Source: Patescibacteria group bacterium (GTDB lineage: Bacteria > Patescibacteriota > Patescibacteriia > Magasanikbacterales > GWA2-37-8). From it: 64,000 nucleotides of DNA. The translations under genes and the position numbers were made by a program. The DNA is taken from the NCBI GenBank assembly GCA_004321885.1, contig SCQK01000007.1, forward strand, positions 150,540 through 214,539, written 5' to 3'. Under the pieces are notes generated by a model that had not been told where the DNA came from, did no database searches, and saw only the letters and a list, made by a program, of their open reading frames with translations. Shown one piece after another: positions 193 to 63,504 of this stretch (its first letter is position 1; each line of letters begins with the position of its first letter).

Positions 193-1422
193 TTGTCAAT
201 GAATATGTCCGTCAAAAAAATTTTCCTCATCGTCCTCCTGCTTCTGGTGGCGGTTCTTATCGGTATCGGGCTTTATAAAATGTTTATTGGCGCCAAGCCG
301 GCCGCCAAAATCCCCTATCAACCGCCCGCACCCATTACCCCGGGCGTACTGCCGCCCTCGGGCGCGCGCACTACGACCGGCGCGGGCGTTCCCGCGGGCG
401 CCATTTTGCCTTCGGCCGGTTTTATGGTGCAAACCTCCACCCCGGCCGGATTCTACAAAGCCGAGCCAGTCACCCAAATCAGCGCCGACTACGCGGTTTA
501 TCCTTCACTGAACCAAACCGGCGGCTTCCGTTATTACAACGCGGCCGACGGCAAATTTTACGACATCCGAAACGGCAAAATTACTCCCCTTTCGGACCAG
601 GTCTTTTACAACGCTTCAAACGTCACCTGGGCCAAAAACCGTGACATTGTCGTGATAGAATATCCGGACCAGTCAAAAATCATCTACAATTTTGAAACCG
701 AAAAGCAGGTAACTTTGCCCAAACACTGGAGCGAATTTTCTTTTTCTCCCGAAGGCAAAGAGATCGCGGCCAAAAGCATTGGCCTGGCCCCGGAAAATCG
801 CTGGTTGGTTACCACGCGAGACGACGGCACCGGCACCAAAACCATAGAACCCATGGGAAACAACGCCGACCGCGTGCTGGTGGACTGGTCTCCCAGCCGG
901 CAAGCCGTGGCTTTTTCGCGCACCGGCGAGCCCCTTGGCGCCGAACGCCAGGAAATTTTGCTCGTTGGCCTGAACGGCGAAAATTTCAAATCCTTGGTGG
1001 TTGAGGGCGAAAACTTTTTGCCCAAATGGTCTACCACCGGCAAAAAATTATTATACAGCGTGGACAGTTCGCGCACGGATTTTAATCCCGAACTCTGGAT
1101 AAGCGACGCCTATGGCGACCGCATCGGCGATAACAGACAAACCTTAAAATTAAACACCTGGGCCGACAAGTGCGCTTTCGCGAGCGACGATGCTTTGTAC
1201 TGCGCCGTGCCCAAAGAATTGCCCCAGGGCGCGGGCATGGCGCGCGACATTGCCAACGGCCTGGCCGACGAATTGTACAAAATTGACCTGCGCACCGGTC
1301 TCAAAACAGTCGTGCCCCTGGGCGGCGATTACAATATCACCAATATTTCTTTTGATGCCGCCAAATCCGCGTTGTATTTCACGGATTTAAATAAGAGCGG
1401 GGTGTTTGAAAGCAAATTATGA
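193..1422 (+). CDS. membrane-anchored protein with Pro-rich linker and TolB/PD40-like beta-propeller repeats (hypothetical)
   Basis: N-terminal TM helix, PAxxP linker, repeated YxxxDG / WSP motifs; ATGA overlap with the next gene. Confidence 0.5.
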   Translation: MSMNMSVKKIFLIVLLLLVAVLIGIGLYKMFIGAKPAAKIPYQPPAPITPGVLPPSGARTTTGAGVPAGAILPSAGFMVQTSTPAGFYKAEPVTQISADYAVYPSLNQTGGFRYYNAADGKFYDIRNGKITPLSDQVFYNASNVTWAKNRDIVVIEYPDQSKIIYNFETEKQVTLPKHWSEFSFSPEGKEIAAKSIGLAPENRWLVTTRDDGTGTKTIEPMGNNADRVLVDWSPSRQAVAFSRTGEPLGAERQEILLVGLNGENFKSLVVEGENFLPKWSTTGKKLLYSVDSSRTDFNPELWISDAYGDRIGDNRQTLKLNTWADKCAFASDDALYCAVPKELPQGAGMARDIANGLADELYKIDLRTGLKTVVPLGGDYNITNISFDAAKSALYFTDLNKSGVFESKL

Positions 1423-20974: not shown

Positions 20975-22477
20975 ATGCGCGAAATCATTCTCAAAAACGA
21001 CCCGGAACTCAAGGACCTCCTGGATGAACTAAAAAATTATTGCCGCAAAGACGACCTGATAATGGCTCGCCTGGTTTATGATTTCGCGGACAAGGCGCAT
21101 GAGGGGCAGATGCGCAAATCAGGCGTGCCGTACATAAAGCATTGTCTGGCCACGGCCTACATTTTGGCCAAAATGAAGATTGACATCGGCATTATTATCG
21201 CCGCTCTGCTTCACGACGTGCCCGAGGACACCCATGTCACGCTGGAAGAAGTGGAGAAAAATTTCGGCCATGACGTGGCCTCGCTGGTAAAAGGCGTCAC
21301 CAAATTGGGCAAGCTGAAATATCGCGGCGTGGAAAGATACATTGAGAACCTGCGCAAAATGTTCGTGGCCATGGCCGAAGACATCCGCGTAATGATTATA
21401 AAATTCGCGGACCGCATCAACAACCTGGCCACGCTCGACGCCCTGCCGCCCAAAAAACGCCACCGCATCGCTCTGGAAAGCCTGGAAATTTACGCCCCCA
21501 TTGCCAACCGCCTGGGTATGGGCGAATTCAAAAGTCTACTGGAGGATTTGTCTTTTCCGCATATCTATCCCAAAGAATATGAAAAAGTTTTTCAAGTCAG
21601 ACAAGATTACCTGGCCGGACAGCAGGCCTATTTGGACCGGGTGATGCAAATCGCGAGGGAAGAAATGACCGCCGCCGGCATCAATTGGAGCGACGTGCAC
21701 GGCCGCGAAAAAACCTTGTACAGTTTGTATAAAAAAATACTGAGCAAGGGCTGGGACAACGTGGACAAAGTGTACGACATCGTGGCCATCAGAATCATCG
21801 TGGGCGACGTAGGCGACTGCTACGCGGCCCTGGGCATTATCCACAAACTGTGGCGCCCGCTCAAAGGCAGAATAAAAGATTATATATCCCAGCCCAAGCC
21901 CAACGGCTACAAATCATTGCACACCACGGTTTTTTGCGCCGAGGGCAGAATCGTGGAATTTCAGATTCGCGACGCGGAAATGCACGGCGAGGCCGAGCAC
22001 GGCATCGCCGCCCACTGGCATTACGACGAACAGGGCGCTAAAATTCCGGCGCGCGACATCAACTGGGCCGTGGAGCTGGCTTCCATCCAAAAAAATATTT
22101 TGGAAAAAATTTCCGACCTCAACGAGCTGAAAGTGGACTTTTTCCGCAACCGCATTTTTGTTTTCACCCCCCAGGGCGACGTGATGGACCTGCCCGAAGA
22201 CGCCACGCCCATTGATTTCGCCTACAACATTCACACCGACGTGGGCAACCATTGCAACGGCGCCAAGGTCAATGACCAGATGGTCTCTCTGGATGCGCCC
22301 TTAAAAAGCGGGGACGTGGTGGAGATTATTATGGACAAAAACCGCAAAGGCCCCAGCCCGGACTGGCTGAAAACCGTAAAAACCCACTCAGCCAAATCGC
22401 GCATCAAATCCAATCTCAAACATAGCCGCTCGTCTTTGTGGCTGCAAATGATTTTGCCGAAGCCGAAGAAGAAGTGA
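20975..22477 (+). CDS. rel: RelA/SpoT-homolog (p)ppGpp synthetase/hydrolase (short RSH with HD, synthetase and TGS domains)
   Basis: HD motif, RelA_SpoT synthetase region, TGS domain (RIFVFTPQGDVMDLP). Confidence 0.8.
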   Translation: MREIILKNDPELKDLLDELKNYCRKDDLIMARLVYDFADKAHEGQMRKSGVPYIKHCLATAYILAKMKIDIGIIIAALLHDVPEDTHVTLEEVEKNFGHDVASLVKGVTKLGKLKYRGVERYIENLRKMFVAMAEDIRVMIIKFADRINNLATLDALPPKKRHRIALESLEIYAPIANRLGMGEFKSLLEDLSFPHIYPKEYEKVFQVRQDYLAGQQAYLDRVMQIAREEMTAAGINWSDVHGREKTLYSLYKKILSKGWDNVDKVYDIVAIRIIVGDVGDCYAALGIIHKLWRPLKGRIKDYISQPKPNGYKSLHTTVFCAEGRIVEFQIRDAEMHGEAEHGIAAHWHYDEQGAKIPARDINWAVELASIQKNILEKISDLNELKVDFFRNRIFVFTPQGDVMDLPEDATPIDFAYNIHTDVGNHCNGAKVNDQMVSLDAPLKSGDVVEIIMDKNRKGPSPDWLKTVKTHSAKSRIKSNLKHSRSSLWLQMILPKPKKK

Positions 22478-37052: not shown

Positions 37053-37271
37053 ATGGGTCTTCCCGGACATCGCCGAACCTCTTCGGACAAACGGCGCCGC
37101 TCGGCTCATTTTGCTTTGACCGAGGTCAACGCGCAAAAATGCCCCAAATGCGGCACGGCCATTTTGCCCCATCGTGTTTGCGCTTTTTGCGGCACATACA
37201 AAGGCCGCCAAGTGATTGACGTGAGCAAGCGCGACGTCAGAGGCAAAAGACGGGCAAAGAAAAACAAATGA
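37053..37271 (+). CDS. rpmF: 50S ribosomal protein L32
   Basis: [18 protein letters not shown]-terminus plus CPKCG...[12 protein letters not shown] zinc ribbon. Confidence 0.6.
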
Positions 37272-38690: not shown

Positions 38691-39464
38691 CTAAACCGTC
38701 ACACTCTCTACTTTTATTCTTCCTTCCAAATAATTTTTATCATCTTTGAACGCGGCCGTTGCTTCATCCGCCAATTCGCCACTGCCCAACACAATTATTA
38801 CAAACGGATTTTCTGTTGTAAATAATTCTCCAAATCCGTGATGGCCGAAAGCGATATTTACCGCCACTTTTAATTCTTCGGTCGCGTATTCAGCCGGCAA
38901 ATACGCGCGGCTGATAACAAAACCCATGGGCAAACCATCGGCAGACGGATTAAATTTTCCCGTGCCGTCAAAATACACCACACGCGCGCTGTGAAATTCG
39001 GCCGGCCGCGCCATTTCTGTCAAAGCCACATGGCGGTAGCGCGCCCCGAGTTTGTCGGCTAATTTTTTCGCCCAATCAATCGCCAAATTATCCATTTGCT
39101 CGGATGTCGGTTCGGTTCCTTGGTTGTCGCGCTTGTAAGCGAGCCCGGCCGCGCCGCAACCTCCGTGGCTTGTGATTTCGCTCACGCCCAAATTTTTCAT
39201 CAGCCCGGCTGTTTTTTTCAGCCGCTCGGCTTCGGAGCTCGCCGGAAACAAAATGCCAGAACCGGCCATGGGGAATTTTGTCAGGCCGCCCATTTTTTTG
39301 TGCGCCACGCCTTCATCCATGCAGACAACGCACTCGTGCGTGTTCACAAAACATTTGCCCCACTCCGGCAAATTTTTTAAATATTTTTCCGTTCCCTGTT
39401 CGTAAATTTTTCGCATTACTTCTTGTCCATTGCTCCATTCAGCTTCCAGATTCTCATTATGCAT
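38691..39464 (-). CDS. beta-carbonic-anhydrase-like protein (divergent; native codon usage)
   Basis: CVVCMDEGV resembles the CxDxR motif; SHGGCGAAG resembles HxxCG. Confidence 0.4.
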   Translation of the reverse strand: MHNENLEAEWSNGQEVMRKIYEQGTEKYLKNLPEWGKCFVNTHECVVCMDEGVAHKKMGGLTKFPMAGSGILFPASSEAERLKKTAGLMKNLGVSEITSHGGCGAAGLAYKRDNQGTEPTSEQMDNLAIDWAKKLADKLGARYRHVALTEMARPAEFHSARVVYFDGTGKFNPSADGLPMGFVISRAYLPAEYATEELKVAVNIAFGHHGFGELFTTENPFVIIVLGSGELADEATAAFKDDKNYLEGRIKVESVTV

Positions 39465-39559: not shown

Positions 39560-40207
39560 CTAAGCGGCGTCAGACGACTCCAACAGCCCGGGATCCGGCT
39601 CTTTTCCTTGAGGCCAGACCTCAATCTCCGGGTGCGTCTTCCTCCACTGCACCCATCCCTTGGCCCGAAGCCTCAAGAAACTATGATACCCCGAGTCATG
39701 ATCGTAGAGGCCGAAGATGAGAAGCACCTTCGTCTTTCCGATGGCCAGGCGCTTCTTGATATTCAGCTTGCCCTTGACCATCAGGTCAAGACACTGTATC
39801 AGCTTCAGCTTGTACTTTTCACAACCGCGGCAGGTGGCGTGATGACCTACAATGGTGAGGTAGTTATTTCCCTCGGTGTTCATGAACGTCCGCAGGGTTA
39901 CTTCTATTACAGTATAGTACGGCCGATCGTCGTTCAGCGGGGAGAAGGGGAAAACCGCCAGGTGCGCCCCCACGAAACTGACGTTCGCCATGCCGTTCAG
40001 CGGGTCTCTTCTTCCCCGGCCAGCCAGCGAAAGGACGCGCTCATCGGCCTCTTGGTTGAAGCGGCCGCATCCGCAAGTGATGTACGCCTTGCCTGGCTCA
40101 AAGCCGTGGCCGTCCAGCCGATTAAGTACCCCGGCCGCCAACAACTGACTAATGACCTTTCGCTCCTCATCGTTGTAGCCGAATAAACTTGACTCCCTCT
40201 GTGTCAT
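39560..40207 (-). CDS. beta-carbonic-anhydrase-like paralog (GC-rich, AAG/GAG codons; likely horizontally acquired)
   Basis: ITCGCGR and VGHHATCRGC motifs; strong SD AAGGAGG; the + strand mirror ORF was rejected. Confidence 0.45.
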   Translation of the reverse strand: MTQRESSLFGYNDEERKVISQLLAAGVLNRLDGHGFEPGKAYITCGCGRFNQEADERVLSLAGRGRRDPLNGMANVSFVGAHLAVFPFSPLNDDRPYYTVIEVTLRTFMNTEGNNYLTIVGHHATCRGCEKYKLKLIQCLDLMVKGKLNIKKRLAIGKTKVLLIFGLYDHDSGYHSFLRLRAKGWVQWRKTHPEIEVWPQGKEPDPGLLESSDAA

Positions 40208-40358: not shown

Positions 40359-40925
40359 CTACTGTGGACGGACGAGCTGCATGCGGCGGAACTCGCGCCA
40401 CTTCTTACCGGAGAGGAAATACGTTCTCTTATCCTCTTCCGCTCCAGTCCAGTCCACATGAAGCTTGCACCTCACGCGGAGGCCGTGGTTGATCTCATCC
40501 TTGATCTCATCCTTGACGCCGACTATCCAGTCGACGATGGTGATGACGTCCAGCCCCCAGGCATCAGCTTTCCCACAGGGGACATGAGCAATGAGGACCA
40601 CGGTGTCAATCTCCTTGAGCTCCCGCGACTCGCGAATCTCCTCGAACAACATGTTGCCCTTCTCGCGACCGGCGGGATCCGGGCACTTGCGGTTCATCAG
40701 CAGAGGACCGCCGTTGATGGCGTGTAGGTGCGGCCGGGGCCGGCAGACACGCTCAATATACTTCATCTGATCGAGCGCCTGATCGCCATCGCCGCAGAGC
40801 ACCACGATCGCCCCGCCGCTGACATCCAACAATTTCGGCTCGACGTCCAGGAAAAAACCCTCTTCGCGCAGAACTGCCAGATCGTGCAACTCCTTCTCGG
40901 TAAGCTTACGGGCGTGTTTTCCCAC
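40359..40925 (-). CDS. beta-carbonic-anhydrase-like paralog (GC-rich; GTG start with SD)
   Basis: VVLCGDGDQ and IAHVPCGKADAWG motifs. Confidence 0.45.
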   Translation of the reverse strand: MGKHARKLTEKELHDLAVLREEGFFLDVEPKLLDVSGGAIVVLCGDGDQALDQMKYIERVCRPRPHLHAINGGPLLMNRKCPDPAGREKGNMLFEEIRESRELKEIDTVVLIAHVPCGKADAWGLDVITIVDWIVGVKDEIKDEINHGLRVRCKLHVDWTGAEEDKRTYFLSGKKWREFRRMQLVRPQ

Positions 40926-41301
40926 TTGCGTCTCCTTTTGGCGTAGGTAGTTGAGGGAAAGAGCGCTTCAAATTTTGAAACACTCGGTTTCATAATTTGC
41001 GAACATCATTTTACTCCGCTTCTCAAAAAAAATCAAGGGTCGTTCTTTTTTGAAAAACAATTTTTTACAGACTGCTTGCGGGGTCGCATGACCCTGTGCA
41101 TAACTTTTCCTAAAACTATTTTCATTCCGAAAAAAAAGTTTTATAATATATGCAGGTCGAGAAGAAAAATTTTACGTTGATGCTTGTCATGTAAAATTTC
41201 TTCAAAAATTTTTGCCGCGCTCATCAGATGGGAACTTACCCTAGGGGGCTCTCACGAGGATGAACGCCCAAAAATTATCTTACTCTCTATTCCAGACCTG
41301 T

Positions 41302-41325
41302 ATCCCGACTAAGTCGGGATGACAG
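41302..41325. repeat. ATCCCGACTAAGTCGGGATGACAG palindromic element in the micro-ORF leader
   Basis: CCCGACTAAGTCGGG core shared with the rRNA/intron hairpins. Confidence 0.7.
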
Positions 41326-41354
41326 TGCGCTGGGACAGAAAGGGGGTGTCTATT

Positions 41355-41402
41355 ATGGCCAAGAAGAAAGCCAAGAAGAAGGGCGGTAAGAAGCGAAAAT
41401 AG
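41355..41402 (+). CDS. 15-aa poly-Lys micro-ORF MAKKKAKKKGGKKRK
   Basis: SD AGGGGG plus 8 nt then ATG; immediately followed by a strong terminator. Confidence 0.35.
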   Translation: MAKKKAKKKGGKKRK

Positions 41403-41413
41403 TTTGGTAACTA

Positions 41414-41447
41414 AAACCTCCCGGCTTAGCCGGGAGGTTTTGTTTTT
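41414..41447. terminator. bidirectional rho-independent terminator (aaacctcccggc-ttag-ccgggaggttt then T7)
   Basis: Ends the micro-ORF (+) and the PHP gene (-). Confidence 0.7.
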
Positions 41448-42751
41448 TAGAATAATCGCGACTGGCCTCCGCCCATTTTTTCACGGTCGCCCAGGGCGTT
41501 CACTGTTCCGAACACGCCGTCGTAACCGGGCTTTACTTTCACCCGGCCAACGCGCGCGTTGGCGATGGCCAAAGCGATATTTTTATCCGAAGCGTATTTT
41601 TTTATCTCTTCCAAATCAGCGTCCAATAAAATATGAAATTCACTGCCGATATTTTTAATCAGATTTTCATACTCTAACGCCACTTTTTTGCCGGCCGTTC
41701 CCACGCCGAATACCGCCGCGATTATTTCCCGCAAAGGCACGACGTACTTGTGCGGAATAAATTTTTCCGCCGGGATATTTTCTTCTTCGCGGTCAGCCAA
41801 ATCATCTACGCGATGCAAAACACCGACTGTTAAATTTTTTTTGCATTTGGGGCAAATATTTTTTAATTTTTTTGTTTCTTTGGGCGCCAGGCAAACCTCG
41901 CACGCCGCGTGTCCGTCAAAATGATACTTGCCCTCTTCGGGAAAAAATTCTATGGTGTGCAAAAACTTTCTCTTGTCGCCTTCTTTTATTATCCGCGTGA
42001 TTTCGCCATAAGTAATTTCGTTTTCTTCCGCAAAAGCGAACGCATTGGCCTCGCGGCCGATTTTGTCCGGACTGTGCGCGTCGGAATTGGACACCAGGGT
42101 AATATTATCCAGCTTTGAAAGACGACGGTTCATTGCCGGGTCGCTGGAGAGTCCGGTTTCTATGGCGCGGATATGCGGCGTTAACTCTTCAAAGCACTCT
42201 GTCAGCGAATCATAGCCGGATTTGGAGCCGAAAACCGCGAACCAGGGAGTCCAGGCATGGGCCGGAATGAGTAAAAATCTTTCGTCAATTTCTAAAAGCA
42301 TTTGCAAAACGGCTTTGGCCGATAAACCCATTATCGGCCGGCCGTCGGATTTTAGGTTCACGCTCTTTTTTTCAAACTGCGCGTTCAATTTTTCCACCGC
42401 GGCGATATTGGGCGCCAAAATCACCAAATGCAAACGGCGGGTTTTGTCTTGGTGTTTGTAGATGCAGGAAATCTCGGTGGAGAGGATGAATTTAACCCCT
42501 CCTTGTATCCCTCCCCTATTAGGGGAGGGGCAAGGGGTGGGGTTTTTCAATTCATACAATCCGCTCTCTCCAATCTCGGACAAATTTTCTTTTATATGCC
42601 CCAGCCAGGCCGGATGCGTGAAATCGCCGGTCGCTACAATATCAACTCCCTTGCGCGCGCAAGCCGCGGCGATTTTTGGCAATTCCAAATCAGGCGAACA
42701 AGCGCGTGAGTATTTGGAATGAATGTGAAAGTCAAGAATTTGTTTGAGCAT
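41447..42751 (-). CDS. PHP-domain protein with C-terminal zinc finger, endonuclease Q-like
   Basis: LDFHIHSKYS PHP motif; GHAACEVC...CPKC; in-frame CCCTCC/GGAGGG element (PTPCPSPNRGGIQGGV). Confidence 0.5.
   Translation of the reverse strand: MLKQILDFHIHSKYSRACSPDLELPKIAAACARKGVDIVATGDFTHPAWLGHIKENLSEIGESGLYELKNPTPCPSPNRGGIQGGVKFILSTEISCIYKHQDKTRRLHLVILAPNIAAVEKLNAQFEKKSVNLKSDGRPIMGLSAKAVLQMLLEIDERFLLIPAHAWTPWFAVFGSKSGYDSLTECFEELTPHIRAIETGLSSDPAMNRRLSKLDNITLVSNSDAHSPDKIGREANAFAFAEENEITYGEITRIIKEGDKRKFLHTIEFFPEEGKYHFDGHAACEVCLAPKETKKLKNICPKCKKNLTVGVLHRVDDLADREEENIPAEKFIPHKYVVPLREIIAAVFGVGTAGKKVALEYENLIKNIGSEFHILLDADLEEIKKYASDKNIALAIANARVGRVKVKPGYDGVFGTVNALGDREKMGGGQSRLF
42496..42545. repeat. 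CCCTCC/GGAGGG hairpin element inserted in frame in the PHP gene
   Basis: cccctccttgtatccctcccctattaggggaggggcaaggggtgggg. Confidence 0.75.
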
Positions 42752-56851: not shown

Positions 56852-56968
<117 letters not shown>

Positions 56969-57009
56969 GCGTGTTTAAGTTTTTTGCAATAGGGACGGAT
57001 TCCCACGGT

Positions 57010-57037
57010 GGATTCCTGCTCGAAGGCAGGAATGACA
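57010..57037. repeat. GGATTCC-TGCTCGAAGGCA-GGAATGACA element in the 23S-5S spacer
   Basis: Could double as a processing stem. Confidence 0.6.
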
Positions 57038-57343
57038 GCGAGGGAAAGCACAGCTTAATGCTTTTGTCGTACGCTCGACCTATTAGTACTCCTCCGCTCA
57101 AGCCATTACTGGCCTTACACGTAGAGCCTATCAACCTTGTAGTCTACAAGGGGTCTCAACGAACATTAATCTTGAAGACGGCTTCACGCTTAGATGCTTT
57201 CAGCGTTTATCCGTGCCGAACGTAGCTACCCGGCAATGCCCTTGGTAGGACAACCGGCACACCAGAGGTTCGTCCACTCCGGTCCTCTCGTACTAGGAGT
57301 GAGCCTTCGCAATGTTCAACGCCCGCAACAGATAGGAGACCGA

Positions 57344-57664
57344 CAATTTTGTTACATTCCCGACTTTCCGCCGACTGGCGGACGGGACGGCGCATTATTT
57401 CTAACACGCTCTGCATGTCGCCATGCAGTTCGGACTATATCTTCCCTGAACCTTATTGGTTCGCGGGTCTAGCGTATAGTCTCTGAGGATTCTCTCTTTG
57501 AGAGTCTTTCCTGCTGGTTGTCTGCACTTGCCGCTTTATTACTTATAAAATAAGTAGCGCAAGATACTTTGGTTTCACTCCTAAATGAAACCTTCCAGAG
57601 TTTCCAGCATTTAGCTAGATTTATAGACAGCGCGGTTTGTGGCTAAGATTAGCCAAACTCTTCC
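57344..57664 (-). mobile_element. group I intron, ORF-less (321 nt), at E. coli L2593-like site (GAGACAGT|...|TCGGTC)
   Basis: 5' exon ends U, intron ends G; S-box AAGATATAGTCC present. Confidence 0.65.
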
Positions 57665-57708
<44 letters not shown>

Positions 57709-57744
57709 TGGCGAACAGCCAAACCCTTGGCAGCTTCTCCACCG

Positions 57745-57780
<36 letters not shown>

Positions 57781-57819
57781 GGACCGTCTATATGGACTAT
57801 CGGGTCCGATCAGCCTGTT

Positions 57820-58683
57820 CATATTACTTCCCCTATTACTAGGAGTACTGACTATATCTTCATCCCAACTTTGCCCAGTCGGGAGTACGGCATATTGTGG
57901 CGCGCGATTTCCTTCACTATGAATGCGCCACCTCGGCCTTAGGCCTCAGTCGATACGGGGTTCTTCATCAATTTTGTACCGCATGCTTTCTATCACATAC
58001 GGGGCAATTATTTTTTGCAGTTTCCTGGTGTCCTTCACGCAAAATTTCAAATCCATGGCTTTTGTTTTTTTTAATTCCAGCTTTGGGTGTAGATTGAAAT
58101 TTTTCGCGAAGACTCGTTTCAGTCCGCTGATGCTTTCGGCGTTCAGCTTGGACAGATAGATATACGCGGTTTTATCGCGTTTATAATAATATCCATCATC
58201 CATAAACCATACTGCCAATACTAGAGGATCAAATAATTTTTCAATTATTTTTGGAACTTGCTTGTCGCCGTTTTCATAAAACAGCGCATGCAATTTTCCA
58301 AACTCTGGCGATGAATGCGACTGGCATCGGTAATAGGCATATTGTTTCCGCCAAATCGGATTAAAACGCGTCAAATACTTTGGTTTTGATTGCATATATC
58401 GTTCAAGCTCGCGCCACTTCCAGAAAATATATTCTTTCTGACGCGAACTATGCTCCAAACGCAATCGCGCGTTTTTCTCGCCGGTTTTTTGCAAAAAACC
58501 ATCGCCTAATACACAGCCAATCGCTATACTTCTTTCGCGTTGATTCATATGTAATGTAATTTAACGCGATGAAGAACTTCCCACGGTATTCCCCTTCCCG
58601 TTTGGGATTCGGGGTTCACCGTTATTAGCCGTTTTCTTGTTCCGATATTACTACCGGAACGGGACAACAACCCTTTCGGGTCT
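57820..58683 (-). mobile_element. group I intron at the L2449 (omega/I-SceI-type) site GGGGAT|...|AACAGGC with LAGLIDADG ORF
   Basis: Exons rejoin to GGGGATAACAGGCTGAT; S-box GAAGATATAGTCAG. Confidence 0.7.
57946..58548 (-). CDS. LAGLIDADG homing endonuclease (intron-encoded)
   Basis: IGCVLGDGFL plus second motif. Confidence 0.75.
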   Translation of the reverse strand: MNQRERSIAIGCVLGDGFLQKTGEKNARLRLEHSSRQKEYIFWKWRELERYMQSKPKYLTRFNPIWRKQYAYYRCQSHSSPEFGKLHALFYENGDKQVPKIIEKLFDPLVLAVWFMDDGYYYKRDKTAYIYLSKLNAESISGLKRVFAKNFNLHPKLELKKTKAMDLKFCVKDTRKLQKIIAPYVIESMRYKIDEEPRID

Positions 58684-58872
58684 ATCCCCGGAGTAGCTTT
58701 TATCCGTTGATCTTCCACTCTCCTATATGAGGTGGTCGGTTCACTAACTTCCGCTTTCGCGACTGCTCGGGTTGTAGCCCTTGCAGTAAAGCCAGCTTGT
58801 GCGTTTGCGCGTCCAGCTCGATTTCCATCCGAGCTAAGCTGACCTTTGTAAACGCCTCCGTTACATTTTAGG

Positions 58873-59809
58873 CAATTGTGTTACCTTAATTTTCCTAACT
58901 TATATTCCATTTTCGGAATAATATAGGGCCTGATGATATTAACGAATTCCTGCACCGATGACGCGAGCAAGTAAATCTGCTTGCCTTCTTTCTGCTTTCG
59001 CAGTTTGGTTGCTATCTTGTATTTATTCGACAGAACCCTTCGCAATCGGCGCAGACAAATATCGGAATAACATTGTGTGTTTAGAATTAACGCCCGATGA
59101 TGATTTGATTTAATGGAACCATCATCCATAAACCATACTGCCAATCCGAGCGGCGTCAGCCATCGATGAATCAATTTAGGCACGGTCTTCTCGCGGCCGC
59201 GATAGAATTGCGCGGCGTAGAAGCGCAGAGCCGGATGACTCACTGTGTTAAACCAATATTTTTTGTACAGCTTGCCGTTCACTGTCTGGTCTTTGATTTT
59301 AGGAGGAGTTATCACCCAATCCTTGAACTTGTCATAAATCCAATCAACGTATGCCTTTTGGCTAAGTCCGTGCTGGACCATTAACCGATAAGCGACGCCG
59401 GAATTATGATTAGATAGGTGACTGTCTCCCAGTAATGTTCCGACCAGTATCTCACGCTGTACTTTTGTTAATTTCAATCCCTTCTTATACTCTCTTAACT
59501 TCAGAGTATTCATAATTTTAAGGACCAAATTTAATTTGGTGCTCTATGTCGCCATAGAGTTCAGACTATATCATTATCCCGACTAAGTCGGGATACCTGG
59601 CATGTAGTCGTTGAGGGGTCATCCCGATTAAATTGGGAGACTTCCCTGCTGGTTGACCGCAGGCGCGCATTTTCACCCCGACGTAACGTCGGGGTAGCGC
59701 GGCCATACTCCGGTTGTTCTAGCATATAGCCAAGTTTGCTTTCAATGTCGCCATTGAAACGCCCTTCGTGATGTTCCAACATTCGTTGGCGTAACGGACA
59801 TCACGACTC
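58873..59809 (-). mobile_element. group I intron in the domain V region (~E. coli 2260) with LAGLIDADG ORF; boundaries tentative
   Basis: Exons rejoin to GGGGCGGTTGCCT|CCTAAAATGTAACGGAGGCG; S-box ATGATATAGTCTGAAC; contains two CCCGAC...GTCGGG hairpins. Confidence 0.5.
58881..59513 (-). CDS. LAGLIDADG homing endonuclease (intron-encoded)
   Basis: VGTLLGDSHL plus second motif. Confidence 0.7.
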   Translation of the reverse strand: MNTLKLREYKKGLKLTKVQREILVGTLLGDSHLSNHNSGVAYRLMVQHGLSQKAYVDWIYDKFKDWVITPPKIKDQTVNGKLYKKYWFNTVSHPALRFYAAQFYRGREKTVPKLIHRWLTPLGLAVWFMDDGSIKSNHHRALILNTQCYSDICLRRLRRVLSNKYKIATKLRKQKEGKQIYLLASSVQEFVNIIRPYIIPKMEYKLGKLR

Positions 59810-60103
59810 AGGCAACCGCCCCAGTTAAACTACCCACCAGACACTGTCTCCTTTGGCCGATTCAGGTCAAAAGATTAGGCATAAATTCATCTAAGGGTGG
59901 TATTTCACTGTCCCCCGACTAGGTCGGGGTCCCACCTATTCTAAACATAAATAAGCTTATGCCAATATCAAGTTGTAGTAAAGCTTCACGGGGTCTTTTC
60001 GTCTAGTTGCGGGTAGGAGGCATCTTCACCTCCCTTGCAATTTCACCGAGTCCCTCGTTGAGACAGTCGCACTATCGTTATGCCATTCATGCGGGTCGGA
60101 ACT

Positions 60104-60811
60104 CCAATTGTTATCACTGTGTTTCCACAATGTTCAGACTATACTTTCATCTTCCCGACAATATTTAGGAGATCTGTTTTTAAATAGCGGCGCGCTCCGA
60201 TGTTATTCATCGTATAGGCACTGGCTATAATTTCCTTTATACCATTTGTCGACAAGTGAAGATTTGACTTCATTGAGCGACAAATTTTTCTCAATATTTC
60301 AAAGTCATTTTGCTTTGAAGTTCTTAGAGGGTATCTGTCAAAGTGCGGCATGATTTTTTTTATCAAATCATCCAGACTTCGCACCTCGTATTTGTACGTC
60401 TGATCATGACTGTCAAAGCGAATACCGCCACAAGCAAAATAATTTTTCAATTCTTCCAGAACCGATAAATTACGCTTGTTTTGGCTGACCGTGAAACTTG
60501 GTCTGACTTCAATCCCGACGGATAATTTATCGCGTCGTGAGAACGAAACCAGAAAGCTTCCTTCGCCATCAACAATTCCCGAAACGTACCAAGGATTTAT
60601 CTCCATATACTGTCTCCTTTCTTGGGAAGAGCCGGCGTGTTGCCCGCTTTTGGCAGGCCTCATCTTTCGATTCAGTCGTTACGGGGCTTTGCTTCCCAGC
60701 AAAGCTTCCCACGGTATTCCCCCATAGGGGTTCACCGTTATGAGCCGGTTTGCTAATATCGCGTCACCGCGATACTCGGGCAAGTATTATCTCCGACCCG
60801 GAGATTTGTTC
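60104..60811 (-). mobile_element. group I intron at the L1931-like site TTGTCGGGT|...|AGTTCCGACC with LAGLIDADG ORF
   Basis: S-box GAAAGTATAGTCTGAAC near the 3' end. Confidence 0.65.
60139..60606 (-). CDS. LAGLIDADG homing endonuclease (intron-encoded)
   Basis: VSGIVDGEGSF; SD AAAGGAGA before the ATG. Confidence 0.75.
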   Translation of the reverse strand: MEINPWYVSGIVDGEGSFLVSFSRRDKLSVGIEVRPSFTVSQNKRNLSVLEELKNYFACGGIRFDSHDQTYKYEVRSLDDLIKKIMPHFDRYPLRTSKQNDFEILRKICRSMKSNLHLSTNGIKEIIASAYTMNNIGARRYLKTDLLNIVGKMKV

Positions 60812-60831
60812 ACCCGACAAGGAATTTCGCT

Positions 60832-61303
60832 CGACGCTTCCTTTTTAATAGCGTTGGACTATATCTTCATCCCCGACTAAGTCGGGGAGCATAGCGTTTA
60901 GTCTCTGAGGATCCTAAACTGTTAAGCCCCTGTTACTGCGTAGTAACATTTAATCGCAAATGCGAATTATCCTCAATCATTATTTTTATAACACCATCGC
61001 ATAAGCGCTCGCTAAAGCACATCTGCAAAAAATTTTGTAGTAGTTTGAAGGTGATATGATTAATGATTAGAGGGGCCTAACGCAATTTTGTTATTAATAA
61101 CATAATTGCATTAAATTAGTTTCCTGCTGATCATCCCGCTTGGGACTTCCCAGCATATGGCTATGATTGGATTATACCACACATCACTGTGCGGTAAGGC
61201 AGCTTTTTTAATGGCTTTGATTTGATCCTCTGCTGATCACGATTGTTTACATATCGCTATCTCCGTCCCAATCCTTGTGAATTCGTGGGTAAACGAATTC
61301 ACA
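60832..61303 (-). mobile_element. group I intron, ORF-less (472 nt), at the L1917-like site CCTAAGGT|...|AGCGAAATTCC
   Basis: Separated from the next intron by a 20-nt exon; S-box GAAGATATAGTCC. Confidence 0.65.
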
Positions 61304-62111
61304 ACCTTAGGACGGTTATAGTTACCGCCGGCGTTCATCAGCGCTTCGGTTCAAGGCTGCCTTCCCGACTAGGTCGGGAAATGACCTCTCCCCTTAACGT
61401 TCTGACACTGGCCAGGCATCACCCCCTATACTTCAGCTTGCGCTTTTGCAGGGAGCTGTGTTTTTGGTAAACAGTCGCAGTGCGTCTTTTGTTGTAATCC
61501 CGACTAAGTCGGGACGGGCCTTATCCCTAAGTTACGGCCGCTGTATTGCAGAGTTCCTAAACGAGGGTTCTCTCGTACGCCTTGGTCTTCTCGACCTATC
61601 CACCTGTGTCGGTTTACGGTACGGTTGCGCGCGACTTAACGATTCATGCCTTTTCTAGGCACCTCTCCGTCTTAAGTTGACTCCACCCGAGGGCTTTGTC
61701 TTCGCCTTGCGGCACGTGTATAACCAAAACACGCTTAAAATTTTGAGATGCGCAACATGAATCAAATCGCGCCCAGTGCTGGAATATTAACCAGCTCATC
61801 CATCGACTACCCCGCCTGGCGGCGGACTCGCCTTAGGACCGACTAACCCTGGGTCGATTCTCGTTGCCCAGGAAACCTTGGATTTTCGGCGCTCCGGATT
61901 CTCACCGGAGTTTTTGCTACTTATGCCTGCATTCTCGCTTCCTTGCACTCCACCACGGCTCACGCCTATGGCTTCAGCGCGCAAGGAACGTTCCTCTACC
62001 ATTCATCTGTATATAAATATACAAACAAATTCGCAGCTTCGGTACCATATTTAAGCCCCGTACATCTTTGGCGCTAAAACTCTTGACCAGTGAGCTGTTA
62101 CGCTTTCTTTA

Positions 62112-62147
<36 letters not shown>

Positions 62148-63504
62148 AAAGAATTAGAACCGCCTTGTTTGCACTTAACATGGATTTAGGGACCTTAGCT
62201 AGCGATCTGGGCTGTTCCCCTTTTGACAATGGCGCTTAGCCGTCACTGTCTGACTCCTGAGATCTGGCTACTGGCATTCGGAGTTTGATTGAAAACGGTA
62301 TCCCGAAGGACCCAATTCTCATCCAGTGCTCTACCGCCGATAGAAACTCTCAAGGCTAGTCCTAGAACTATTTCGAGGAAAACCAGCTATCACCGAGTTC
62401 GATTAGAATTTCTCTCCTATCCACAGTTCATCTCCGCGTGTTGCACGGCGCGTGAGTTCGGACCTCCCCTTCGATTTCTCGAAGGTTCATCCTGACCATG
62501 GATAGCTCACCCGGTTTCGGGTTATGTGCGTGCCACAAACGCCCTTTCAGACTCGCTTTCGCTGCGCCTACGCCCCAGAGGGGCTTAAGCAAGCGGCACA
62601 CATCACACTCGCAGGCTCATTCTTCAATAGGAACACGGTCACCCTTGCGGGCTCCCGCTCTTTGTAAGCGCATGGTTTCAGATACTATTTCATCGCCCTC
62701 TCCGGGCTGCTTTTCACCTTTCCCTCGTGGTACTTGTCCACTATCGATCACCAAAAGTATTTAGTCTTGGACCATAGTCGGCCCGGCTTCAGACGGAATT
62801 TCACGAGTTCCGTCCTACTCAAGAACACTAGCTATGATTTTTTAACTCCTTTCGCGTACGGGACTATTACCCTCTCTGGTTGTTCTTTCCAGAACATTCT
62901 ACTAGGAAGGTTAAAACGCTCACCCGACTTTGCAGAAAGTCGGCGCTAATGTCTTACAACACTCCACAAACAACGGTCTGCACCTTTAAGCCGCGTCAAA
63001 TTAATCTTGCGATCAACCGTTCGCGGCAACATTTATGGAGTTTGGACTTTTCCCTTTTCGCTCGCCGCTACTAAGGGAATCTCTTCGATTTATTTTCCTC
63101 TGGCTACTGAGATGTTTCACTTCGCCAGGTCTTCTTCATGCGGCTATGTATTCACCGCACAATGATCTCTTGCCAATTCCATCTCCAAACTTTTGCTTGA
63201 ACAAGATTGGCTTAGCGTTTCTTTCAGAAACGGAATTGGCAAGAGATCGGGTTTCCCCATTCGGAAATCCCCGGGTCAAAGGTTGCTTGGGACCTCTCCG
63301 AGGCTTATCGCACCCTGCAACGTCCTTCATCGTCTTTTGGTGTCAAGGCATCCGCCATGCGCCCTTGGTAAAATTGCGCACGACAGAAGCACTAAATTGT
63401 GCTTCGTCGCTTACTACCCTATTGCTTTACCACCACACCAAAATTTTTTGGTGTGCGTGGTTTATTTTAAATTGTCAAAGTGCTTTCTTTTGTCGTCCGT
63501 CTCT

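Follow-up and report, generated by a model that had tools for sequence, protein, structure and literature searches.

Low-complexity polycations of the histone-H1-like type are already known in bacteria. Chlamydial Hc2 (HctB, PF07382) and the Burkholderia-type H1-like family NF038053 are built of Lys/Ala-rich low-complexity repeats and have no acidic residues, and the size of chlamydial Hc2 varies by the number of lysine-rich repeat units (PMC2848022). The same AKK/PAKK/KKAAP repeat chemistry is seen in the H1-like C-terminal tails of AlgP and PhaF (Pseudomonas) and of HupB/MDP1, Ku and TopA (Actinobacteria), where the tail is appended to a folded domain; such KPAA/PAKKA tails serve as non-specific modules for binding polyanions (DNA, RNA and polyphosphate) (PMC9239181, PMC12818456, PMC3553676, PMC5714199). 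Here we describe a gene in a 64,000-nucleotide (nt) stretch of DNA from a Patescibacteria group bacterium (contig SCQK01000007.1, positions 150,540 to 214,539; the whole stretch is called the window, and its positions are counted from its first letter). The gene encodes the 15-amino acid (aa) peptide MAKKKAKKKGGKKRK and is, by sequence comparison, shorter than any other member that we found of a family of very basic, repeat-built small proteins in Patescibacteria (K-rich family). In contrast to the AlgP, PhaF, HupB, Ku and TopA tails, the tail in this family is the entire protein and has a separate gene. Compared with Hc2 and NF038053, the members are much smaller (15 to 188 aa; median, 33.5; n = 78), are confined to Patescibacteria, and differ in the architecture of promoter and leader. 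No earlier description appears to exist of stand-alone micro-proteins of this tail-only kind (down to 15 aa) in Patescibacteria, of the fixed DnaA-box promoter of the K-rich gene, or of a leader hairpin with the loop sequence AUGCUUGU, which is absent from Rfam. Our literature search found no paper linking Patescibacteria or the candidate phyla radiation (CPR) to H1-like or nucleoid-associated small proteins.

The K-rich gene and its relatives

Loci were gathered around homologues of the 434-aa Endonuclease Q encoded by the neighbouring gene (160 loci; 80 from species-representative genomes and 80 from metagenomes). The 152 loci with enough flanking sequence were scanned mechanically for small K/R-rich open reading frames (ORFs), and 78 distinct members were left after removal of duplicates. 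Note that no collected locus exceeds 67% Endonuclease Q identity to the window, and the comparisons are all distant; the loci with a K-rich ORF share merely 48-67%. A Lys/Ala-rich ORF was present in 78 of the 152 related Patescibacteria loci, on the opposite strand and directly past the Endonuclease Q stop codon (median gap, 90 nt; all at a distance of no more than 700 nt). Conservation in relatives, which the sequence-only reading of the window had proposed as a check, was thus obtained for the ORF.

The family composition is K 49.7%, A 22.1%, R 9.7%, P 6.2%, V 5.9% and T 3.6%, with E, F and Q near 0; the proteins are almost without acidic, aromatic or large hydrophobic residues and are built of AKK, PAKK and KKAAP-type repeats. 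The N-terminus is nearly always MAAKK, MPAKK or MAKKK (a M[AP](A)KKK start), and the C-terminus is KKRK, KKKK or KKKR. Gain and loss of K/A/P/V/T repeats varies the length while these terminal motifs are kept, and close relatives already differ (20, 23 and 25 aa in loci L003, L004 and L007). The window peptide consists of the N- and C-terminal motifs with the repeat body shrunk to nothing, and its GGKK(K)R ending is found again in L010, L096 and L143. Other minimal forms occur in L090 (16 aa, MAKKKAKKKATKKKKR) and in L003 and L143 (20 aa each); these forms arose independently.

Several features of the family are those of translated genes. The T content at codon positions 1, 2 and 3 of the family ORFs is 0.8%, 6.7% and 17%, and identical peptides are spelled with differing synonymous third-position codons. 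AAG makes up 47% of the lysine codons in the family ORFs and 27% in the long ORFs of the same loci, and its share is higher in the family ORF in 63 of 68 loci (Wilcoxon p = 5e-12). In the window micro-ORF (ATG GCC AAG AAG AAA GCC AAG AAG AAG GGC GGT AAG AAG CGA AAA TAG), the ratio of AAG to AAA is 7:2, against 28% AAG in the long ORFs of the window. Judged by these codon counts, lysine codon choice is under selection; the AAG preference fits selection against slippery poly-A runs (PMC4363877). A GGAGG-like core stands 4-13 nt before the ATG in 60 of the 78 members (mode, 8 nt), and GAAAGGAGGTG is conserved at the Shine-Dalgarno (SD) sequence in the leader alignment. In the relatives that were printed out (individual cases, not a family-wide count), a hairpin and T-run terminator follows right behind the ORF. 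Because of the codon periodicity, the synonymous spellings, the AAG shift, and the conserved synteny and SD, the micro-ORF is regarded as a genuine protein-coding gene. That it is a real, translated and conserved polycation gene is highly probable, and this is firmer than either the ligand or the control by DnaA.

The features of the window locus are collected in Table 1. All elements that the sequence-only reading had listed are present, among them the 15-aa Lys-rich micro-ORF, the strong SD 8 nt before its ATG, and a TATAAT about 200 nt upstream, for which the promoter scan also gave a -35 element. Some details needed correction. The net charge of the peptide, given as +12, is about +10, because it contains 9 Lys and 1 Arg (the other residues counted being 2 Ala and 2 Gly). 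The bidirectional GC hairpin terminator was confirmed by the terminator scan and is regarded as bidirectional because the stop codon (41447-41449) of the convergent 434-aa gene overlaps its T-run; the stem is followed by G and T6 on the plus strand and by a U-rich tail on the minus strand, and the T-run is T4-G-T6 and not T7 as claimed. The leader element CCCGACTAAGTCGGG does exist, and the strongly conserved elements are others, namely hairpin 1 and the DnaA box (see below). The view that standard annotation pipelines miss such a gene was borne out, the micro-ORF being conserved and translation-competent; an exact look-up of ten orthologues in a collection of 15 billion proteins found none of them.

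Table 1. Positions of features at the K-rich locus of the window and of related hairpins in other loci
Feature	Position	Strand	Description and basis
DnaA box, extended, AAAG-TTATGCACA-G	41094-41107	-	9-mer core 41095-41103; exact match to the consensus TTATNCACA
Sigma-70-type promoter	41119-41147	+	TTTTCA, 17 nt, TATAAT (-10 at 41142-41147); scan, 10/12 matches
GGTCGA	41155-41160	+	(G/T)GTCG(A/T), shared with about 25 relatives, 6-8 nt past the -10
Hairpin 1	41167-41199	+	11-bp stem 41167-41177/41189-41199; 11-nt loop 41178-41188 with invariant AUGCUUGU at 41180-41187
Hairpin 2	41207-41276	+	Outer stem UUUUUG...CAAAAA, large window-specific insert; minimum free energy (MFE) and centroid folds
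Hairpin 3 core, CCCGAC-UAA-GUCGGG (CCCGACTAAGTCGGG)	41304-41318	+	MFE and centroid folds
Extended SD, AAGGGGGTG	41340-41348	+	Read in the sequence; G-run to ATG, 8 nt
Micro-ORF, MAKKKAKKKGGKKRK	41355-41402	+	ATG 41355, stop TAG 41400-41402, 15 aa; ORF listing
Bidirectional intrinsic terminator	41413-41448	both	13-bp GC-rich stem 41413-41425/41429-41441, loop UUA; terminator scan
Endonuclease Q homologue, 434 aa	41447-42751	-	Convergent neighbour; outside the micro-ORF transcript
cca-leader hairpin, L072	10425-10460	-	
cca-leader hairpin, L041	10875-10925	-	
cca-leader hairpin, L161	~945-980	+	

Promoter, DnaA box and leader RNA

The locus resembles promoters regulated by DnaA (dnaA, nrdAB, sda and others, with R1/R4-type boxes) in having a single site with an exact core close to the promoter. 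This consensus 9-mer, a box of the high-affinity type, stands just upstream of the -35 region and is fixed in position relative to the core promoter across orthologues. Unlike in those promoters, the target is a polycationic micro-protein, and DnaA binding is predicted from sequence. We know of no DnaA regulon member that is a polycationic micro-protein, and our literature search found none of this kind. The TTATNCACA core with G flanks (GTTATNCACAG) and the GTTATCCACAG form are those of the E. coli oriC R1 and R4 boxes.

The predicted DnaA-binding site of the window promoter is AAAGTTATGCACAG, at about -59 to -51 relative to the predicted transcription start. Of the 78 members, 45 have a perfect box no more than 350 nt upstream, against an expectation of about 0.03 per member; 104 perfect boxes were counted in total across the 1.31 Mb of collected sequence. 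Among 44 tabulated sites, the eight specified positions are invariant and the N position is A in 17, C in 13, G in 13 and T in 1; the core is flanked by a conserved AAAG and G. Boxes of both orientations were found, each at a set distance to the -10 element: 13 of the 17 that face one way are 38 nt from it, and 18 of the 26 that face the other way are 40-41 nt from it. The -10 and the CTATTTCA-like -35 region also align across the relatives. From the box we infer DnaA-dependent control of the micro-ORF promoter. Transcription probably starts near 41154, and GGTCGA is the probable 5' end of the transcript. The window holds just two perfect TTATNCACA sites, the second being at 21837-21845 (TTATCCACA). 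An origin of replication was also considered for this locus and rejected (single box, no other site with up to one mismatch in 40850-41460, and a cumulative GC skew that is monotonic through the window).

The leader, from the predicted start to the ATG, is 207 nt long and has a folding z of -4.1. Family-wide, the 150 nt before the ATG have a mean z of -2.2, and 91% of the values are below 0. Hairpin 1 is its most clearly defined part. In an ungapped alignment of 27 sequences (alignment A1), 91.6% of its stem cells are paired, against 39-55% in slid controls; compensatory changes were seen at 9 of the 11 pairs, and none of 500 shuffles reached the score. The loop motif, A-U-(G/A)-C-U-U-G-U, is invariant. 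A covariance model found one copy per locus in 31 loci and in the window over the 1.31 Mb, with a score of 57 bits in the sense and 28 bits in the antisense direction. The alignment has 16 G-U and 6 A-C pairs, and this excess points to hairpin 1 being an RNA on the ORF strand. With Rfam (15), the whole window gave no match in 41100-41400 at gathering thresholds; at E <= 10 on 40800-41600 the matches were sub-threshold ones driven by the terminator, and hairpin 1 was absent from them. The similarities at the terminator itself (rimP, rnk, Phe leader) are terminator-like and sub-threshold.

Hairpin 1 alone was recovered in a consensus fold of the whole leader, because the leaders differ by large insertions. 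At the position of hairpin 2, relatives have a shorter hairpin with a U-run/A-run outer stem and, in the closest relatives, a CUCGCG(AU)CGCGAG core. The hairpin before the SD, of which hairpin 3 is the version in the window, is optional: many relatives have a non-homologous one at a distance of 10-30 nt from the SD, and it is missing from others. A second clade (L012-L022, L073, L085, L088, L089 and L110; for example, L012:7490-7520, minus strand) has another leader hairpin, UUGGUGUG-(N)ACCAUGG(N)-CACRUCAA, which shows G-U pairs and compensatory changes (GUG/CAC to UAU/AUA) and whose loop, CCAUGG, is palindromic. Such palindromic loops of clade-specific leader hairpins could allow kissing dimers.

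Other roles for the leader were tried. A mini-ORF in the loop of hairpin 1 (ATG CTT GTC ATG TAA, MLVM) was rejected, L011 having ATA for ATG and the frame running on in L001 and L005. Sequestration of the SD was not relied on: the MFE fold, unlike the centroid fold, pairs the SD with UACUCUCU (41281-41288), and the similar (U)AUCCU elements of relatives form 4-6 bp only. For the loop of hairpin 1, complements (GACAAGCAT) with up to one mismatch were found 13 times in the window against 12.95 expected, which is chance level, and inspection by eye found no consistent pairing with the SD/start region.

Hairpin 1 also occurs outside K-rich leaders. In a stem-agnostic search the loop geometry (2 nt, AUGCUUGU, 1 nt) was all-or-none: the 8-mer turned up 87 times, and in 28 of these cases all 8 of the 8 closing pairs were present. 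At L021:6130-6178 (minus strand), a AUGCUUGU-loop hairpin with an unrelated GC-rich stem and a T-run forms the terminator right after a 125-aa K-rich ORF. An 11-nt-loop hairpin (NN-AUGCUUGU-N) is found, with differing stems, in the 5' untranslated region (UTR) of orthologous genes for the CCA-adding enzyme (PolyA_pol head and HD; Table 1); in L041, a terminator-like hairpin with a U-run, attenuator-looking, stands between it and the ATG. The AUGCUUGU hairpin was absent from five more distant cca leaders (L162-L166). An ORF-less form of the locus stands beside an intact Endonuclease Q gene at L081:3790-3960 (minus strand); it passes directly from a perfect DnaA box (TGTGGATAA) through CATAAT and the AUGCUUGU hairpin to an intrinsic terminator, and no K-rich ORF was found in the 6.2 kb available. 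Because it is found in K-rich leaders, the L021 terminator, cca leaders and L081, the hairpin acts like a self-contained RNA recognition module. No convincing pairing partner of the AUGCUUGU hairpin was found in trans or in cis, complementarity in the window being at chance.

Candidate functions of the protein and its RNA

The traits of the H1-like class, that is, Lys/Ala(/Pro)-rich tandem repeats, nearly no acidic or aromatic residues and length polymorphism by repeat number, are all found in the K-rich family. Hc2 and NF038053 are the only families with any hidden Markov model (HMM) signal to its members; the longer orthologues gave 9.9-13.1 bits with PF07382 (threshold, 40) and 13.3-20.6 bits with NF038053 (threshold, 80), below the membership threshold in both cases. 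These sub-threshold Pfam and NCBIfam matches come from members of 137 and 66 aa, the longest two that were searched, and members of up to 56 aa had no HMM match or were unscorable like the window 15-mer. A database search with a 152-aa orthologue gave seven weak matches, five of them carrying PF07382, and a PHROG search of family members gave no match. By analogy, the K-rich proteins are most likely intrinsically disordered polycations that bind nucleic acid like histone H1 tails. A disordered polycation is favoured, and a ribosomal protein disfavoured, because charge and composition are conserved while length is free.

We give a probability of about 0.55 to the reading, made in part by analogy, that a monocistronic gene of about 295 nt stands alone at this locus and encodes a minimal H1-tail-like polycation under a DnaA-box promoter. 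Transcription would start near 41154 at the TATAAT promoter. It would be modulated by DnaA at about -55, which would tie the supply of the protein to the initiation of replication. The very short mRNA would be shielded by its long folded 5' UTR and by the strong hairpin of the terminator, the AUGCUUGU hairpin may be a recognition site for some factor, and the very strong SD would drive high translation. The +10 peptide would bind polyanions non-specifically, most probably DNA, which would be charge-neutralised and compacted as by H1-like tails; selection would maintain the total charge rather than a fixed fold. Two features lean towards DNA as the ligand, namely the DnaA box of the promoter and the conserved pairing with a nuclease of DNA repair.

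Several points weigh against this reading. The predicted function is drawn from composition and analogy; the scores with the H1-like HMMs are far below threshold (13-21 bits against 40-80) and compositional in nature, and 15 residues may not suffice for what the longer members do. A perfect DnaA box is lacking in 33 of the 78 members (13 with a one-mismatch site upstream and 20 with none), and the one-mismatch sites are no evidence of a degenerate box because 13 members do not exceed the approximately 20% of members expected by chance. A tblastn search over the collected sequences found no dnaA gene, and the box consensus is not from the oriC of this phylum itself. Every locus was sampled via Endonuclease Q, so that members elsewhere in the genomes are outside the sample. 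DNA is also not the sole candidate ligand: the H1-like tail of AlgP binds polyphosphate (PMC9239181), and that of PhaF binds RNA (PMC12818456).

The rival that survives best, although unlikely, keeps the polycation and changes its ligand to RNA or polyphosphate, so that the protein would be an RNA chaperone or translation modulator like the PhaF tail, or an organiser of polyphosphate granules like AlgP. Its composition class is the same as that of these tails (PMC12818456, PMC9239181), and the AUGCUUGU hairpin is common to an RNA-metabolism gene, that for the CCA-adding enzyme, in L041, L072 and L161, which would suit RNA; the DnaA-box promoter and the Endonuclease Q adjacency, however, lean towards DNA.

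It is improbable that the product is a lineage-specific, ultra-basic ribosomal micro-protein filling a pocket in ribosomal RNA (rRNA), as the sequence-only reading had suggested by comparison with eL41 and Thx. The known proteins of this kind (bTHX, bL37, bS22 and eL41) are like the window peptide in size, in charge and in being missed by annotation, and a tiny, very basic product with a very strong SD and its own transcription unit would agree with such a role. Patescibacteria, moreover, lack some ribosomal proteins. Those proteins, however, are of fixed length and conserved, non-repetitive sequence, and the K-rich family is neither; repeat expansion gives its members lengths of 15 to 188 aa and sets apart even the close relatives L003, L004 and L007, and a defined rRNA-binding site is hard to reconcile with orthologues whose length varies by repeats. 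A ribosomal gene context is lacking, in L081 the promoter, hairpin and terminator persist without an ORF in 6.2 kb, and HMM similarity is to histone-H1-like families only. No solved-structure chain matched either, a phmmer search with a 39-aa member against all PDB chains giving 0 matches at E <= 10 (such a search has low sensitivity for low-complexity sequence). As a separate observation, L070:513-611 (plus strand), in a deltaproteobacterial contig, holds a 32-aa ORF, MGSVVKKRRKKMRKHKHKKLMRKTRHQRKKRG, which looks quite unlike the repeat-built K-rich family and which we take to resemble the ribosomal micro-protein bS22.

Equally improbable is that RNA is the main product, with the AUGCUUGU hairpin as a self-contained module (small RNA, or binding or decoy site) and the ORF as a passenger or second function. 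This would agree with the all-or-none loop geometry and with the four contexts of the hairpin (K-rich 5' UTR, L021 terminator, cca 5' UTRs and the ORF-less L081), but the ORF is conserved far past the range of the hairpin (about 45 members are without hairpin 1) and shows codon-level selection. Moreover, the ORF-less case is one contig, the five distant cca leaders are without the hairpin, and no target in trans was found.

A chance, untranslated ORF in an A/G-rich intergenic stretch is very improbable: purine-rich sequence is naturally stop-free in all frames, but the ATG, SD, frame, terminal motifs and AAG bias are kept across 78 loci at 48-67% Endonuclease Q identity. The leader peptide of a lysine-sensing transcription attenuator, also raised by the sequence-only reading, can hardly be entertained: the ORF does have nine Lys codons and then an intrinsic terminator within 10 nt, like the short ORFs rich in one codon type of the amino-acid leader-peptide attenuators (his, trp, leu, Phe leader), and there are weak sub-threshold Rfam leader similarities (rimP, 36.9 bits against 47; Phe leader), all due to the terminator hairpin, but the proposal is refuted because no gene lies downstream on the micro-ORF strand, where the terminator abuts the convergent Endonuclease Q gene (41447-42751), and, unlike in those systems, there is no downstream operon and no antiterminator pairing evident (none alternative to the terminator arm in the MFE or centroid folds, in a search that was not exhaustive), and the ORF is conserved as a protein, with orthologues of up to 188 aa.

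The polycation gene under a DnaA-box promoter therefore remains our preferred reading. A wider, joint proposal is doubtful: a tail-only 'histone H1' micro-protein would serve as a DnaA-coupled chromatin counter-ion, and the transposable AUGCUUGU hairpin (NN-AUGCUUGU-N) would represent a new class of regulatory RNA. If true, the DnaA-coupled K-rich protein would be a bacterial analogue of replication-coupled histone supply, and the hairpin class would be one shared with the gene for the CCA-adding enzyme and able to exist without an ORF. To our knowledge, DNA packaging and replication-coordinated expression are wholly uncharted in Patescibacteria, which make up a large share of bacterial diversity. 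The widespread K-rich family would give these minimal cells a basic component of chromatin or of polyanion binding, and its promoter is a concrete candidate target of the DnaA regulon in the phylum. In addition, the locus supplies a covariation-supported RNA hairpin with an invariant loop outside Rfam, and shows that synteny, SD context and codon bias are by themselves enough to establish low-complexity ORFs of 15-40 codons as real genes.

Genomic surroundings

The neighbouring protein was identified as Endonuclease Q by its matches to PfuEndoQ (PDB 5ZB8; E = 8e-51) and TIGR00375 (E = 5e-50). An exact look-up of the window protein returned no record, and its closest relatives are in metagenome-assembled genomes of Candidatus Magasanikbacteria. 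Among the loci, the genes on the far side of the micro-ORF vary, while the Endonuclease Q side and the shared terminator are conserved. Note that this conserved pairing is partly a matter of ascertainment because all loci were fished with Endonuclease Q; in L060 and L079, the K-rich gene is kilobases away from Endonuclease Q and still has its own DnaA box/promoter features.

Upstream of the locus, three consecutive genes on the minus strand (38691-39464, 39560-40207 and 40359-40925) encode proteins of 257, 215 and 188 aa with no Pfam, NCBIfam or PHROG match. Beside the locus, the 257-aa protein is also conserved in L081, L005 and L001, at 43-52% identity; the 188-aa one recurs only in L002 and L009. 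The window also contains a 23S rRNA gene (56856-63378, minus strand), split in two covariance-model matches and adjoined by 5S rRNA; it holds two group I introns (57411-57693 and 59542-59780), typical of CPR bacteria. Finally, similar basic ORF ends are found at 37212-37271 (plus strand) of the window and at L002:12561-12620 (minus strand; ending in AHRDARRKRAAKKKK in L002), in both cases just upstream of an RNase III gene, and this basic tail is probably the conserved C-terminus of a longer protein.

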